A DNA stretch of 5,483 nucleotides from a virus (lineage: Duplodnaviria > Heunggongvirae > Uroviricota > Caudoviricetes): the IMG/VR virus record IMGVR_UViG_3300039372_000053. One strand, written 5' to 3'. The notes under the pieces were generated by a model, which had not been told where the DNA came from, searched no databases, and worked only from the letters and a program-made list of their open reading frames with translations. Shown here piece by piece: positions 1 to 5,254 of the stretch. Both the position numbers and the translations under genes were made by a program. Numbering within the stretch: position 1 is the stretch's first letter; each line of letters begins with the position of its first letter.

Positions 1-436
1 TGAGAGTATTGTCACGATGTTTACGCCCCAGCCATGGAGAAAGTTTTTTCAGGCAGGGAACATCCCGAATCGTCGCCTCCACGTGAGACTTCATAAAATC
101 TTCAGCGGCAGAATCCGTGGGCTGAAAAAGCAGACTGTTTCGGGATTTATGCTCAATAAAATACCCGACCACCCCCAGCAACATCTTTGTATAGCCAACA
201 CGGGCAGATTTAATCAGATTAACAGTCCGGATCTGATCATTCCCCATGCTGTTCATGATGGCGATCTGGAACGGCAGCGTTTTCCATTCTCCCTCACCAT
301 ATGAAGATTCTTTAGGCAGATAATAATTTTGATCAGCCCATTCAACTGGCGTCACCGGCAATGCCCTTATCAGGGGCTGTAATGCTGTTGTGACAGCACT
401 CATCATATTATTCAGTTGTTGCTCTGATATATTCAT
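1..436 (-). CDS. Terminase large subunit (lambda gpA-like), N-terminal ~145 codons only; the gene continues past the window start
   Basis: Not in the ORF track because it has no stop in the window. Reverse-complement translation from ATG at 436..434 gives MNISEQQLNNMMSAVTTALQPLIRALPVTPVEWADQNYYLPKESSYGEGEWKTLPFQIAIMNSMGNDQIRTVNLIKSARVGYTKMLLGVVGYFIEHK..., which aligns closely with the recalled N-terminus of lambda gpA (…VEWADANYYLPKESSYQEGRWETLPFQRAIMNAMGSDYIREVNVVKSARVGYSKMLLGVYAYFIEHK…). It overlaps the 3' end of the small subunit gene by 26 nt, as Nu1/A do in lambda. Confidence 0.9.
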   Translation of the reverse strand, partial: MNISEQQLNNMMSAVTTALQPLIRALPVTPVEWADQNYYLPKESSYGEGEWKTLPFQIAIMNSMGNDQIRTVNLIKSARVGYTKMLLGVVGYFIEHKSRNSLLFQPTDSAAEDFMKSHVEATIRDVPCLKKLSPWLGRKHRDNTL

Positions 437-917
437 CGAGTAAATCCGGTAATTTATCCCCCGCCCGCGCACACTGATTTGCCCCCTTCGCAATAAGGGT
501 TTTCAGATGGTCAAGATGGCGCGGTGTTAAATCAGGAAACTGTCGCTGCATGGATAAAGGGATGGAATCAAGCGTACTGGATAACGCCATTGCCAGCTTG
601 CTGAGAGCAAAAATACAGAACCCGGTATCAATAAGTTTTCCTTTTGACACCTCATTTTTTAACTGCTGTGTAACAGCCTGTTCTGCTGTCAGTTCCCATC
701 TGGCAATAAGCAATTTCTCCTCATAGTCGTCTTCGCTATCGCCATCAGGCACATCGTTTTTACTTCTTCTCAGATACGATATGTAAAAATCGCGCCAGGC
801 ATCCAGATCCAGTTGCCCTCGCTTATTCGATATCGGGGCACCCGGCAATTTCTGCAATCTGCGAAGCTGGCGATCGGTCAGACTTAAATGCCTGGCAACT
901 TCAGTCTGCGTAGCCAC
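408..917 (-). CDS. Terminase small subunit (lambda Nu1-like), 169 aa, GTG start
   Basis: The C-terminal half (…DTGFCIFALSKLAMALSSTLDSIPLSMQRQFPDLTPRHLDHLK…LPDLLDEYIRATTE) aligns with recalled lambda Nu1 (…ETAFCTFVLSRIAGEIASILDGLPLSVQRRFPELENRHVDFLK…IPGLLSEYIEQSG). The N-terminal DNA-binding part is diverged. The first in-frame start after a TGA is GTG at 917..915, preceded by GAGGTGAGGA. The gene sits next to cos and upstream of the large subunit. Confidence 0.9.
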   Translation of the reverse strand: MATQTEVARHLSLTDRQLRRLQKLPGAPISNKRGQLDLDAWRDFYISYLRRSKNDVPDGDSEDDYEEKLLIARWELTAEQAVTQQLKNEVSKGKLIDTGFCIFALSKLAMALSSTLDSIPLSMQRQFPDLTPRHLDHLKTLIAKGANQCARAGDKLPDLLDEYIRATTE

Positions 918-1311: not shown

Positions 1312-1545
1312 ATGTCAACGAAGAACAAAACCCGCAGAACAACAACCCGCAACATCCGCTTTCCTAACCAAATGATTGAACAAAGTAACATCGCTCTTGA
1401 TCAAAAAGGGTCCGGGAATTTCTCAGCCTGGGTCATTGAAGCCTGCCGCCGGAGACTGTGCTCAGAAAAAAGAGTTTCTCCTGAAGCAAACAAAGAAAAG
1501 AGTGACATTACTGAATTGCTCAGAAAACAGGTCAGACCAGATTGA
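1312..1545 (+). CDS. Small phage protein, DUF3950 / YlcI-like (77 aa)
   Basis: The N-terminus MSTKNKTRRTTTRNIRFPNQMIEQSNIALDQKGSGNFSAWVIEACRRRL matches my recollection of YlcI-type proteins from E. coli lambdoid prophages (DLP12) and of the unannotated ORF at the lambda right end. It is divergent from the terminase genes, as in DLP12. The Shine-Dalgarno is weak (acgggg). Confidence 0.7.
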   Translation: MSTKNKTRRTTTRNIRFPNQMIEQSNIALDQKGSGNFSAWVIEACRRRLCSEKRVSPEANKEKSDITELLRKQVRPD

Positions 1546-1602
1546 AGCAATTTAGATAATCGTGCAGACTACGCCCCCTCATATCACATGGAAGGTTTAT
1601 CT

Positions 1603-2013
1603 ATGGATCAGGTAGTCATTTTTAAACAAATATTTGATAAAGTTCGAAACGATTTAAACTATCAATGGTTTTATTCTGAGCTAAAACGTCACAATGTCTC
1701 ACATTACATTTACTATTTAGCCACAGAGAATGTTCATATTGTATTAAAAAATGATAATACAGTGTTATTAAAGGGCCTAAAAAACATTGTGTCTGTCAAA
1801 TTTTCAAAGGATAGGCATCTTATAGAAACGACCTCTAATAAGCTGAAATCCAGAGAGATCACATTTCAGGAATACAGAAGAAACCTTGCTAAAGCAGGAG
1901 TTTTTCGGTGGGTTACAAATATCCACGAACAAAAAAGATATTACTATACCTTTGATAATTCATTACTCTTTACTGAAAACATACAGAGCACATCACAAAT
2001 GTTTCCACACTAA
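1603..2013 (+). CDS. AT-rich hypothetical protein, 136 aa (moron); possibly DUF1398 / YbcV-YdfO-like by size and position
   Basis: Clean ORF. The track start at 1588 is probably too early: GGAAGG at 1590..1595 lies 7 nt upstream of ATG 1603, giving 136 aa. The product is rich in K/N/Y/F/I. G+C is visibly much lower than the flanks (about one third versus about half, estimated by eye). It sits between the lysis genes and cos on the strand opposite the late operon, where DLP12/Qin carry DUF1398 genes (from memory). Family membership is not verified. Confidence 0.65.
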
Positions 2014-2315: not shown

Positions 2316-2831
2316 TCAATTAATCAGCAGTTCAGGCTGTGTCACCTGCAAGATGTATTCATGCTCGACAGCCAGGACACGCTTCTCTTTCTTCCGTTCG
2401 TTCATTAACCGACTGCCGATCGTACCTTTCAGCTTTGAGCGTGTTTCTTTGGTGGCGTAGCGGTGCTGCATTTCTTCGCCAATTGCCATGCGGCGGCTCA
2501 GTTGCTCTGCCATCCAGTTGAATGCTGCGATATAGCTCTCCTTGATTGCCGCAGCAGCTTTCCCGGTGAACCCCATCACAACCATGATCCAGCCATCTTT
2601 CGTCAGGCTGTACATCGGGCGAACCTTGCCCTGCTCATCGATATAATCAGCCGACGCAAAATTGCGTTGGCTAAACTCACGCGAGCAATCAGCCTTAACC
2701 TGCTCGATTTTCCTGAGAACATCACCGTGTCGCTTGCCGAAGTACTTGGCAATTTTTCTGGATGTGGTAACGACCTCTCCGTTTTTGGCTTGCACCATTT
2801 CTCGGAAGTCGAAGGCTGGAATAACTGAATG
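2316..2831 (-). CDS. Rha-family phage regulatory protein (Phage_pRha domain); 5' end interrupted by the assembly gap
   Basis: The translation contains the signature N-terminal region …GEVVTTSRKIAKYFGKRHGDVLRKIEQV…, typical of Rha proteins. The track starts at Met 2798, but the frame stays open upstream to the N-run (…HSVIPAFDFRE-MVQAKNGE…), so the true N-terminus probably lies in or beyond the gap. Confidence 0.8.
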   Translation of the reverse strand, partial: HSVIPAFDFREMVQAKNGEVVTTSRKIAKYFGKRHGDVLRKIEQVKADCSREFSQRNFASADYIDEQGKVRPMYSLTKDGWIMVVMGFTGKAAAAIKESYIAAFNWMAEQLSRRMAIGEEMQHRYATKETRSKLKGTIGSRLMNERKKEKRVLAVEHEYILQVTQPELLIN

Positions 2832-3183: not shown

Positions 3184-3651
3184 TCATCGAAGGCATTGCG
3201 TCCTAATGTATTCCTGAAGCGTTCTCAGTGCTGTTTGGTCGCGGATAATTCCGTCCCGGATATCGAGAACGTTTCGTCCAGCAACTGGAGAGAGTTCGAC
3301 GGTGGCATCATTGCCCATGCCGGAGGCGCTGGAGGTTTCGGCTGAGGATGGCACAGGGCATTTTCCTTTGACGAGCACCCTGCCACCATTATCAAGCTTC
3401 CGCAGAAGAGCATCATTTTCAGCTTTCGCATCAGCTAACTCCTTCGTGTATTTTGCATCGAGCGCAGCAACATCACGCTGACGCATCTGCATGTCAGTAA
3501 TTGCCGCGTTCGCCAGCTTCAGTTCTCTGACATTTTTGTCGCGCTGGGCTTTGTAGGTAATGGCGTTATCGCGGTAATGATTAACAGCCCATGACAGGCA
3601 GACGATGGTGCAGATAACCAGAGTATAAATAATCGCTGCGACTCTGCTCAC
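3184..3651 (-). CDS. Rz: Rz i-spanin (inner-membrane spanin subunit), start GTG at 3651..3649
   Basis: From the GTG the protein reads [40 protein letters not shown]…[30 protein letters not shown]…, near-identical in its N-terminal two thirds to recalled lambda Rz ([82 protein letters not shown]…). The track start (TTG at 3666) is 5 codons too long. GTG overlaps the endolysin TGA stop (GTGA), and GGGGGA lies 7 nt upstream. Confidence 0.9.
3225..3431 (-). CDS. Rz1: Rz1 o-spanin (outer-membrane lipoprotein), embedded in the +1 frame of Rz
   Basis: [21 protein letters not shown]… has a lipoprotein signal and lipobox (VAGC), followed by a proline-rich mature part ([11 protein letters not shown]). 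This matches recalled lambda Rz1 (MLKLKMMLCVMMLPLVVVGC…PPPPPAW). It is fully embedded in Rz, and GAAGGAG lies 7 nt upstream of the ATG. Confidence 0.85.
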
Positions 3652-4181
3652 TGATCTATCCCCCAACAGGCTAATGCGCTTTCCTGGTCACGACGAATAA
3701 CCTGTCCATAGCAGTTATTTGAACGTATGCGGCAATCGCGCCCACCATCTTTTATCCACCAGCGAATCGCCTCGCATGCGCCCTTACGATCACCGGCATT
3801 CAGCCGCTTATAAAACGTCGACGGGAAACACTTACCGGGGCCAATGTTATAGGGACAGAATGACGCTATACCCGCTTTCTGTGGTTCGGTCAGTGGTACT
3901 TTAATATTGCGCTCCACCCATGCCAGCGCCTTATCACGTTCAATAGCGTTAACCTGGTCGCATTTTTCCTTCGACAGCCTCATTCCCGGTATGACGGGCT
4001 TACCATCCACCATTGTGGCACCACGACAGATGGTCCATATACCGGAACCATCGCGGTATGCCGTTGTGTGGTTACCTTCTTTTTCATCCAGAAACTGGTC
4101 GAGAATATCAGGCGCAGGCGCACCGACGGCAATCAGTGCCAGAACGGCAGCCGACAGGCCGTATCTGATTTTTGCGTTCAT
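3648..4181 (-). CDS. SAR endolysin (T4-type lysozyme, glycoside hydrolase family 24) with N-terminal signal-anchor-release domain, 177 aa
   Basis: The N-terminus [27 protein letters not shown] is a Gly/Ala-rich weakly hydrophobic segment typical of SAR domains. It is followed by the lysozyme catalytic region [20 protein letters not shown]. The organisation resembles phage 21 R and E. coli prophage lysozymes (RrrD/RrrQ type). It lies between the holin and Rz. Confidence 0.9.
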
Positions 4182-4286
4182 GGATATTTATCAGGATTTA
4201 TCGGTTTCTGAACCCTGGATATGTTTATCTGTCCCGGCCTGTTGAATCAGGCAAGGAATAGTTAAATACAATAGAGAGGATTGTTT

Positions 4287-4559
4287 ATGGACAATAGCAC
4301 CATTTCTCTACAGGAGTTGCTCGACTGCATTTCCAAGCTTCGGGATGATGTAAATGCCCTTACTGTCGCATTTTCATATCTGGCATTCTCAATTCCCAAG
4401 GAACAAATGCAACCAACACTGGCATCGCTCCAGCTTGAATCACTCAACCCCAAATGGTCCCAGCAACAACAAAATTCTTTCAAGTGGCTGGCGGTATTAC
4501 TGGAAGAAAAATATGCTGGTGAAATTACCATTTCGGCGGAGTCTTCAGTGAACCAGTAA
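4287..4559 (+). CDS. Candidate small protein (90 aa) antisense to the late/lysis operon; function unknown
   Basis: ATG at 4287 is preceded by AGAGAGGA (4272..4279) with a 7-nt spacer. The track's TTG start at 4281 is less likely. The translation MDNSTISLQELLDCISKLRDDVNALTVAFSYLAFSIPKEQMQ…WLAVLLEEKYAGEITISAESSVNQ has ordinary helical-protein composition, whereas the competing minus-strand frame is Cys/Ser-rich with rare codons. A weak hairpin plus T4 follows at 4602..4628. Its 3' end overlaps the convergent ORF 4525..4869 by 35 nt. No homolog is recognised. Confidence 0.4.
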   Translation: MDNSTISLQELLDCISKLRDDVNALTVAFSYLAFSIPKEQMQPTLASLQLESLNPKWSQQQQNSFKWLAVLLEEKYAGEITISAESSVNQ

Positions 4560-4869
4560 TTCTTCCCGGCAGTTTTCCTTTGTAGGTTATCCACACACCC
4601 TGCGCCTCTAAAATTATGGGGCGCTTTTCCGGTGACTGCTCATCCCCTTCACATAACCCGGCAGCAACATCCAGGAAGACCTGTCTGATGCTCCTTCTGG
4701 CTGCTGCCTCATAAAACCCCAGCGCGGCACCTTCAACACGGTCCAGCGAGATGTCCAGGTCAAAAATTTCACCGTCAAAGCGTTTTTTGTCCCGTAACGC
4801 TAAAGTTACCGTAACTTTATTCTCAAAATTGCGGATCCCTTTCACAATCAGTTCATAGTTTTGAATCAT
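4525..4869 (-). CDS. Hypothetical protein (114 aa) translationally coupled to the holin; possibly DUF1327 / YdfR-like by size and position
   Basis: ATG at 4869 lies 4 nt after the holin TAA stop (4876..4874). GGGGAGAG lies 7 nt upstream, inside the holin 3' end. The protein is soluble-looking and acidic (MIQNYELIVKGIRNFENKVTVTLALRDKKRFDGEIFDLD…). From memory, the Qin prophage has a DUF1327 gene (ydfR) between its holin and lysozyme; sequence identity is not verified. Confidence 0.7.
   Translation of the reverse strand: MIQNYELIVKGIRNFENKVTVTLALRDKKRFDGEIFDLDISLDRVEGAALGFYEAAARRSIRQVFLDVAAGLCEGDEQSPEKRPIILEAQGVWITYKGKLPGRITGSLKTPPKW
4602..4628 (+). terminator. Weak candidate terminator downstream of the antisense ORF
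   Basis: 5-bp stem gcgcc (4602..4606) pairs with ggcgc (4620..4624) around a 13-nt loop, followed by tttt (4625..4628). The stem is short and the loop long, so this is marginal. Confidence 0.25.
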
Positions 4870-4873
4870 TGAA

Positions 4874-5089
4874 TTACTCTCCCCGCGCAGCCTTACGACG
4901 GTCCTCTCTGATTTTGAAATACAGGTTAGTCAGATATGTCAGGAAGCCCAGAACCAGACTCCCCAGTACACCAATCGCAGCCCACTGTGACGGACTGACC
5001 TGATCAAGCCACTGTAAAAACCAGTAGCCAGCACTGCCTGCGGAGGTGCCGTAGGCAATGCCCGTTGAAATTTTATCCATGGATTTCAT
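4874..5089 (-). CDS. Class II holin, phage 21 S21-type pinholin (71 aa) with dual-start motif
   Basis: [71 protein letters not shown] matches recalled S21 / EssD. It has two transmembrane segments, and Met1-Lys-Ser-Met4 gives the antiholin/holin dual start. GGAGGTGAGG lies immediately upstream. The track's extension to 5188 is an open-frame artefact. Confidence 0.9.
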
Positions 5090-5226: not shown

Positions 5227-5254
5227 GCCCGTATCCATATGCGGGCTTTTTTTT
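5227..5254 (+). terminator. Rho-independent terminator (plus strand): 8-bp stem, 4-nt loop, T8 tract
   Basis: gcccgtat (5227..5234) pairs with atgcgggc (5239..5246) around loop ccat, including one G-U pair. It is followed by tttttttt (5247..5254). Confidence 0.6.

Follow-up and report, generated by a model that had tools for sequence, protein, structure and literature searches.

The lysis regions of lambdoid prophages are general hot spots for cargo genes, lambda bor and stx among them, and bor is a small lysis-region gene that opposes the late operon. Morons have been described as obvious additions that differ in GC content, possess their own promoter and terminator, and are expressed from the repressed prophage (Cumby et al. 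2012, PMC3594210), and a role of Bor in serum resistance is cited in the same work (PMC3594210). The stretch of DNA analysed here, IMG/VR virus record IMGVR_UViG_3300039372_000053 (5,483 nucleotides; the window in the following), holds, on its minus strand, the late region of an E. coli lambdoid prophage of the P21/Qin type. Between its ydfR and lysozyme genes, and oriented against both, lies an open reading frame (ORF) of 90 codons (4287..4559, plus strand; Table 1), which is a real and already annotated but uncharacterised protein-coding gene of the Ybl58 family (PHROG 2411). A preliminary description of the window, made from the letters alone, had put this ORF forward as a candidate unannotated gene; the observation itself is confirmed and its interpretation is partly right. 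The reading preferred here, with a probability of about 0.8, is that ybl58 is carried on a compact moron, that its overlap with ydfR is a by-product, and that its product would be a small acidic three-helix protein. As an ordinary moron gene, it suggests no new kind of element or system.

That the gene had escaped annotation does not hold, since RefSeq (Prokaryotic Genome Annotation Pipeline, PGAP) places the 'hypothetical protein' WP_000370546.1, identical in sequence, at identical coordinates in SCU-105 and REL606. The coding sequence (CDS) is also present in the record of phage Chlobot, the exact protein sequence is named Ybl58 in UniRef and occurs on at least 1000 contigs, and the match to phrog_2411 is full-length (positions 1-90 of 90, E 4.3e-59), WP_000369850.1 and WP_000370415.1 being related RefSeq members of Ybl58 / PHROG 2411. 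A DNA search with the insert alone (the segment missing from some related prophages) found it in 1221 of 5426 complete E. coli genomes (22%), including REL606, a BL21 derivative (Rosetta2-DE3), CFT073, O55:H7, ST131 EC958, and Stx prophages, and found no copy in ~78%, all examined copies being prophage- or island-borne. Among the sampled sequences that cover most of the insert, 39 out of 39 have a plus-strand hypothetical protein annotated, with none flagged as a pseudogene.

The signals by which the ORF had been recognized are all present in the sequence, namely a Shine-Dalgarno (SD) sequence at ideal spacing (GAGAGGA, 4274-4280, 6 nt ahead of the ATG) and 3' ends that overlap tail-to-tail with ydfR by exactly 35 nt (4525-4559); the SD core AGGA (4277-4280) is unvaried across 36 haplotypes. 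Long ORFs (up to 112-121 aa; e.g., 3907-4245 on the plus strand) also lie antisense to the lysozyme, Rha, and Rz genes, and with other shadow ORFs of 110-120 aa in the window, ORF length alone is no evidence of a gene. The reality of the gene rests on comparative evidence, its length being no better than chance.

The coding strand

The plus ORF is contained in a minus-strand ORF (Table 1) whose internal ATG at 4531 overlaps the ydfR stop codon (aaATGgTAA), both present as the preliminary description had reported them. If the minus-strand ORF were the real gene, it would be translated from this ATG in coupling with ydfR, and the plus ORF would be its shadow; the overlap of start and stop codons does resemble a coupling site, and such a gene would be co-oriented with the operon. 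The preliminary description had held that conservation in the minus frame would speak against the plus-strand gene, and the pooled ratio of nonsynonymous to synonymous substitutions (dN/dS; Nei-Gojobori, NG86, 35 haplotypes, ydfR-free part 4287-4524) does favour the minus frame, at 0.224 vs 0.354 in the plus frame and ~0.8-1.0 in the other four. Moreover, 11 events are synonymous in the minus frame only vs 8 in the plus frame only, and the variable sites in the ORF show a 3-base periodicity. However, the two ORFs have common third codon positions and, thus, neither the periodicity nor the pooled dN/dS can discriminate between them, so both were rejected as tests of frame. Of these 11 minus-only synonymous events, seven are plus-frame exchanges between Lys and Arg (AAG<->AGG), the most conservative of all replacements, that appear on the minus strand as Leu codons (TTG<->CTG). 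The lower minus-frame dN/dS is therefore a mirror artefact, because the wobble positions are shared and the Lys/Arg changes are read as synonymous Leu changes.

The tests that do discriminate all favour the plus frame. Parsimony on the tree places 27 events at the first and 19 at the second plus-frame codon position, with 50 at the shared third position; in a minus-strand gene, the second position would thus be the least constrained non-wobble site and would change more than the first, which is the wrong way round. Missense changes in the plus frame are conservative (mean BLOSUM62 +0.55 vs a mutational null of -0.36, P=0.0001), whereas those in the minus frame are radical, more so than by chance (-1.16 vs -0.54, P=0.004), and include W>S, G>D, L>W, and M>R. 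In the lineages sampled by protein, the minus ATG is lost in E. albertii (L087-89), one minus-frame stop is found in L090-92, two in L093-95, and one in L096, and the minus stop codon is unconserved. Three further lineages were sampled by DNA and, thus, with no bias towards an intact plus ORF. Among these, the ST131 type EC958 (L098, 86% identity; representative of the largest identity band, with 628 records) has one minus-frame stop, MLI106K3 (L100) two, and the copy in E. coli F11 (L099, 75% identical) four, and the plus ORF is intact, with 90 codons, in all three. The minus ORF is open only within the window's own clade, and plus-frame stops are limited to three singleton haplotypes. Furthermore, the minus ORF has an odd composition (7 Cys and 18 Ser in 89 aa), no family match was obtained for it in Pfam, PHROG, and NCBIfam-type profile searches, and distant homologues were found for the plus-frame protein only. 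The minus ORF 4262..4594 is a shadow ORF and the plus frame is the coding one; that a minus-strand gene coupled to ydfR should be the real one is hardly credible. Stops, replacement pattern, and homologues thus agree with the genuine plus-strand gene opposing the late operon that the preliminary description had proposed.

A programmed frameshift fusion between YdfR and the minus ORF was also considered and rejected by inspection, as CCGCCGAAATGG contains no slippery heptamer and relatives have an interrupted frame. In general terms, wobble-aligned antisense ORFs mimic each other's dN/dS and may even favour the shadow frame, and here the frame is resolved by stops in diverged lineages, by first- vs second-position changes, and by the conservativeness of replacements.

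The accessory unit

Alignment of the window to the 'empty-site' prophage L003 shows homology through 4237 that resumes at 4530, the part in between being missing (Table 1), while K-12 Qin is without all of 4192-4663, its ydfR and rrrQ overlapping by 4 nt. The GC content of the insert (42.5%) and of its left flank (41.1%) differs from that of the lysozyme (52.1%), Rz (51.1%), and holin (51.4%) genes. Hence, two traits in the description of morons are found here, namely an addition relative to related phage genomes and a GC content unlike that of the neighbours.

The borders of what moves with the gene are visible in prophages where the surroundings have changed. L091, in which a different lysis cassette replaces the lysozyme gene, keeps ~105 nt upstream of the ORF, with homology from 4171; L093, in which ydfR is mostly deleted, keeps the ORF and ~90 nt downstream, with homology to 4652; and the F11 copy (L099), located in an island with the gene iha and no lysis gene, is homologous from ~4163 to ~4636, just past a hairpin downstream of the ORF. 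The same slot between ydfR and lysozyme is occupied in a Qin-like prophage of E. coli UTAK-6 (L004, 1646-2070) by a different plus-strand ORF of 86 aa (phrog_2572), with a strong terminator (AAAACGCCGC...GCGGCGTTTTTTTT) behind it. Kinship of Ybl58 with phrog_2572 was rejected at an hhalign probability of 0.3%, the two being unrelated. In L004, ydfR apparently reads on as a long C-terminal extension, and PGAP flags it as truncated. Further losses of the gene are seen in L101, where an IS3 element has inserted, and in L102, which has a larger deletion, and since L003 keeps both ends of the unit, 'empty' sites would most simply be deletion scars.

The moron unit would therefore span ~470 bp (~4165-4636), with ~105 nt upstream, the SD, the ORF, a 3' untranslated region (UTR) of 42 nt, and a hairpin terminator that would act on the plus strand only. 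It is wedged backwards into a P21/Qin-type lysis cassette, with ydfR on one side and the lysozyme gene on the other. In related prophages, the whole unit is absent (K-12 Qin), represented by its two ends only (L003), or replaced by unrelated cargo in the same slot (L004). Transcription would start from a weak promoter of its own, independent of the Q-dependent late operon, which would allow expression in the lysogen. Upstream of the ORF, a -10-like TACAAT (4267-4272) is conserved as TATAAT in L099 and GACAAT in L100, and a weaker candidate promoter, TTTATC-17-TATGTT (4197-4225), can be recognized by eye. Control by the SOS response was rejected, since neither the window gene nor its orthologue in Serratia is preceded by a LexA box, the only one there being that of dinI.

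At the other end, the hairpin with a T tract that the preliminary description had suspected is present and is the probable terminator of the plus gene, as judged from its sequence. It pairs GCGCCUC with GGGGCGC across a 9-nt loop (-16.4 kcal/mol, z -2.6; 6 of 200 shuffles fold as well), and its minus-strand version has no U-tract, so it would stop plus-strand transcripts only. The hairpin is kept in L099 with an 8-bp stem in which a U.G pair becomes U.A. A similar hairpin with a 10-bp stem is seen by inspection in a Citrobacter prophage (L108), where the minus-strand reading frame across it differs (KSTSAKEE vs EKRPIILE), which points to conservation of the hairpin itself and not of a minus-strand peptide.

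The unit thus resembles morons in general, such as HK97 gp15, lambda bor, and lom (PMC3594210), in adding DNA at a junction where the two genes of related phages adjoin or overlap, in consisting of a single small gene with its own translation signals, a downstream hairpin, and a differing GC content, and in occurring in many otherwise different prophages and also outside prophages. However, it is not cleanly intergenic, since its 3' end and terminator are also the coding sequence of the YdfR tail on the opposite strand; moreover, its promoter and its expression in the lysogen are putative, and it has no known host phenotype.

Relatives and predicted product

Profile searching against 1.8 billion representatives, with a word-indexed search as the second round, found relatives at 26-40% identity in several genera of Enterobacterales, among them Citrobacter, Serratia (many species), Sodalis, Chania, Gibbsiella, Chimaeribacter, and Acerihabitans. 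A scan of species-representative genomes gave one locus only (E. ruysiae) because it used exact peptide patterns, profile searches being needed to reach other genera. Members share the motif ELL..I..LR..VN.L..AFSYL.FS..E.L..TI.AL.FES.N...Q..F., in which Y31, L32, and E51 are invariant.

The genomic contexts of these relatives differ widely. In Serratia (S. marcescens, S. odorifera; L103-L106 5001-5285), the homologue is a core chromosomal gene, X in the order rne ... pyrC-dinI-X-bssS-solA, and forms a separate transcription unit after the terminator of dinI, which carries a LexA box. This gene (e.g., WP_073528586.1) is 30-39% identical to ybl58 and similar in length, acidity, predicted helices, and single-gene organization, but it has ~7-13 additional N-terminal residues, belongs to the core chromosome, is co-oriented with its neighbours, and has neither lysis genes nearby nor an antisense overlap. 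The Sodalis homologue stands alone on the chromosome, and that of Citrobacter (L108) is divergent from, and immediately upstream of, a holin-lysozyme pair. Variants of the gene are found in the Stx prophages L090 and L092 (4080-5273), where RIP A-subunit and SLT_beta genes lie just upstream of the holin gene; in L090, an IS66 insertion sequence (IS) element adjoins the gene ~43 nt upstream of its ATG. In L093-L095 (1089-1623), a ParE/ParD-like toxin-antitoxin pair lies between the lysozyme gene and a Rha-family gene, and no Rz was called there. Finally, the intact copy of E. coli F11 (L099 1517-1789, NZ_CP184143.1; WP_000370415.1, on at least 1000 contigs) adjoins the adhesin/siderophore-receptor gene iha among IS remnants, and all that remains of the lysis cassette is ~20 nt of the lysozyme 5' end and the hairpin of the ydfR tail.

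Ybl58 is predicted to be a small, acidic, soluble cytoplasmic protein of three helices. AlphaFold2 (AF2) with an alignment of 42 sequences gave a mean predicted local distance difference test (pLDDT) of 84.3 and a predicted template modelling score (pTM) of 0.60, with helices at 8-35, 38-52, and 59-76 and residues 83-90 modelled as disordered (pLDDT <50); this run superseded one with a shallow alignment of 20 sequences, in which pLDDT was 70 and helix 1 was split. The family is acidic throughout, with a median isoelectric point (pI) of 5.05, the window protein having a pI of 4.4 and a net charge of -5.5, and neither a signal peptide nor a membrane segment was found in its members. The N-terminus of the window protein, MDNSTISLQELLD, is acidic and free of a hydrophobic signal segment.

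These properties separate Ybl58 from Bor, with which the preliminary description had compared it. The likeness in placement is borne out, as both are small genes in a lambdoid lysis region, oriented against the late operon. However, Bor is a lipoprotein of the outer membrane that has a signal peptide and a lipobox, whereas Ybl58 is acidic and cytoplasmic, with neither a signal peptide nor a Pfam match (E<=0.1); bor is located downstream of Rz, whereas ybl58 lies between the holin-side gene and the endolysin gene; and the two proteins have no sequence or fold relationship. Membership in the Bor family was thus rejected, there being no Bor domain (Pfam E<=0.1), no hydrophobic signal segment, and a predicted soluble helical bundle instead. 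Because the relatives in Serratia are ordinary genes of the chromosome, flanked by the small regulators dinI and bssS, Ybl58 might be a small regulator or adaptor that binds another protein and takes no part in lysis, and prophages might carry it as host-derived cargo; both suggestions are of low confidence.

Position in the lysis operon and alternative readings

E. coli SCU-105 contains a near-identical stretch with the same RefSeq annotation gene by gene, and the genes of the window are collected in Table 1. The Rha-family gene, which has 525 bp in RefSeq relatives, is broken at its 5' end by 10 N, and this run indicates that the window comes from a gapped or scaffolded assembly. Upstream of the holin gene and, thus, in the leader region of the late operon, there is a full-length match to the small RNA family STnc100 (Rfam RF02076; 5255-5454, minus strand; 139 bits, E 1e-31), which is adjoined by a plus-strand terminator-like hairpin (5227-5246) followed by T8.

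Table 1. Features of the window, numbered from its first letter.
Feature	Position	Strand	Details
Nu1/NohD-like small terminase	408-917	-	
YnfO (DUF3950)	1312-1545	+	
YdfO (DUF1398)	1588-2013	+	
Rha	2316-2798	-	5' end cut by N-run 2832-2841
Rz	3184-3666	-	
Rz1, embedded	3225-3431	-	
Lysozyme (R/rrrQ-type), downstream neighbour in late operon	3648-4181	-	Pfam Phage_lysozyme E 1e-24; RefSeq 'lysozyme'
Upstream region, presumed promoter region, moving with the gene	4182..4286	+	Retained in L091 and L099
Segment missing from L003-type prophages; carries SD and codons 1 to ~81	4238..4529	.	Alignment to L003, L004, K-12 Qin
Shadow ORF, 110 aa from GTG, 89 aa from ATG 4531	4262..4594	-	Not a gene
Ybl58-family CDS, 90 aa, candidate of the preliminary description	4287..4559	+	ATG 4287, TAA 4557-4559
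ydfR (DUF1327, 114 aa), between holin and lysozyme	4525-4869	-	Pfam DUF1327 E 9e-41
3' UTR and probable intrinsic terminator, inside ydfR coding sequence	4560..4630	+	Hairpin 4602-4624, then UUUUCC 4625-4630
Class II (P21-type) holin, first lysis-cassette gene	4874-5089	-	Pfam Phage_holin_2_1 E 9e-36; RefSeq

History accounts for the 35-nt overlap between ybl58 and ydfR better than design does. Even where the body of the gene is missing, the ydfR-antisense sequence that contains the last ~9 codons and the TAA of ybl58 is present, and the stop codon of ydfR is supplied by the insert, the encoded protein ending in ..TPPKW in the window vs ..TPPESQP in L003, with a C-terminus that differs in K-12 too. 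The ORF would thus run from its own body into ydfR-antisense sequence and end at the first stop, a run-on that would add the poorly conserved tail (residues ~80-90) whose end is modelled as disordered, and the variable C-terminal tail of YdfR is encoded opposite the 3' end, 3' UTR, and probable terminator of the gene. The YdfR protein of K-12 uses its residues 1-72 to bind RNase E, in the catalytic N-terminal half of that enzyme, and RNA may be a further ligand (PMC13232886); the part of ydfR overlapped by ybl58 is the variable tail, outside these residues. The C-terminal ~40 residues of the long YdfR (4530-4663, minus strand) look separable, being absent from the 103-aa YdfR of K-12, and a tail resembling them, ...ITGSLRAPIKL, is found at the C-terminus of an unrelated minus-strand ORF of 63 aa in Citrobacter, which overlaps the Ybl58 homologue there (L108 5239-5430; one-to-one blastp E 8e-4). 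The tail-to-tail arrangement is therefore older than the E. coli configuration.

Apart from the minus-strand gene considered above, other explanations of the locus have to be weighed. Ybl58 could be an accessory factor of the lytic cycle, e.g., one that modulates when lysis occurs or that pairs with YdfR or the holin, rather than a conversion gene expressed in the lysogen. This would fit its linkage to holin and endolysin genes, which recurs in prophages of Escherichia and Citrobacter and extends to a second, unrelated cassette (L091/L092), and its travelling with the ...ITGSLxxP tail module of YdfR. However, its orientation opposes the Q-dependent late transcript, and the protein, which has neither a membrane segment nor a signal peptide, does not resemble a holin, antiholin, or spanin, so this role is considered unlikely. 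The unit could also be mainly a putative antisense or convergent-transcription device against the late operon, with the protein secondary: a transcript from upstream of the SD to ~4630 would pair with the ydfR-R junction or collide with late transcription, and would tune lysozyme and spanin expression or damp leaky lysis genes in the lysogen. The unit is indeed convergent with the late operon, its hairpin-ended transcript would be antisense to ~105 nt of ydfR, the one-way action of the hairpin would suit such a device, and the family lies beside and opposed to the lysis cassette in two slots (E. coli and Citrobacter L108). Nevertheless, there is clear purifying selection on the protein, the family is deep and has chromosomal, non-phage members, and the frequency of cargo in lysis regions offers another account of the placement, making this explanation distinctly unlikely. 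Both the antisense and the lytic-accessory roles are weakened because copies exist on chromosomes (the Serratia and Sodalis orthologues) and in an island with no lysis genes nearby, the intact iha-island copy having survived without a lysis cassette, on at least 1000 contigs.

A related proposal, that the ybl58 unit and the YdfR tail form a conserved sense-antisense pair physically coupling a lysogen-expressed gene to lysis-operon transcription, is very doubtful; its anatomy is supported, as the last codons, 3' UTR, and hairpin appear to double as coding sequence of the modular '...ITGSLxxP' tail, and its regulation is not. If true, RNase III or RNase E could, for example, act on a duplex of the two RNAs formed at the ydfR-R junction, and the S:R ratio could be set or leaky lysis genes silenced in this way. 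As for a chance or decaying, functionless ORF that is annotated only because it is open, the frequent loss by deletion or IS insertion, the three singleton nonsense haplotypes, the failure to find a paper on the protein, and a scan that returned no promoter would all be expected, but such an ORF would scarcely have homologues at 26-40% identity across several Enterobacterales genera with motif and length conserved, a confident AF2 fold, conservative replacements (P=0.0001), and an invariant SD core, or still be intact in other genomic surroundings, at 75% nucleotide identity. This explanation is therefore extremely improbable.

Several results weigh against the reading preferred here. A promoter in 4182..4286, which the preliminary description had suggested predicting, was not borne out, the consensus scan finding no sigma-70 promoter in this region; the -10-like TACAAT is only 1 nt upstream of the SD, so that the transcription start would fall inside the SD, and the -35-like TTGAAT (19-nt spacing) is unconserved. 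The hairpin is modest (7 bp, 9-nt loop, U4) and below the stricter terminator criteria of the scan, and it is also found in empty-site prophages, including L003, and within the ydfR CDS, so its conservation could partly reflect ydfR. The deletion scars and IS insertions through which the gene is frequently lost indicate that it is dispensable for the prophage. Regarding function, Ybl58 has no Pfam (E<=0.1) or NCBIfam match and is thus unconstrained by homology, PADLOC defence models gave no match at E<=0.1, there is no solved relative and fold matches are generic helical only, and a literature search found no paper mentioning Ybl58 or its WP accessions.

The comparative evidence nonetheless favours ybl58 as a moron gene set against the lysis operon of P21/Qin-type prophages. 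Ybl58 is a very common accessory gene, and functional studies of prophage cargo could reasonably take it as a small target.

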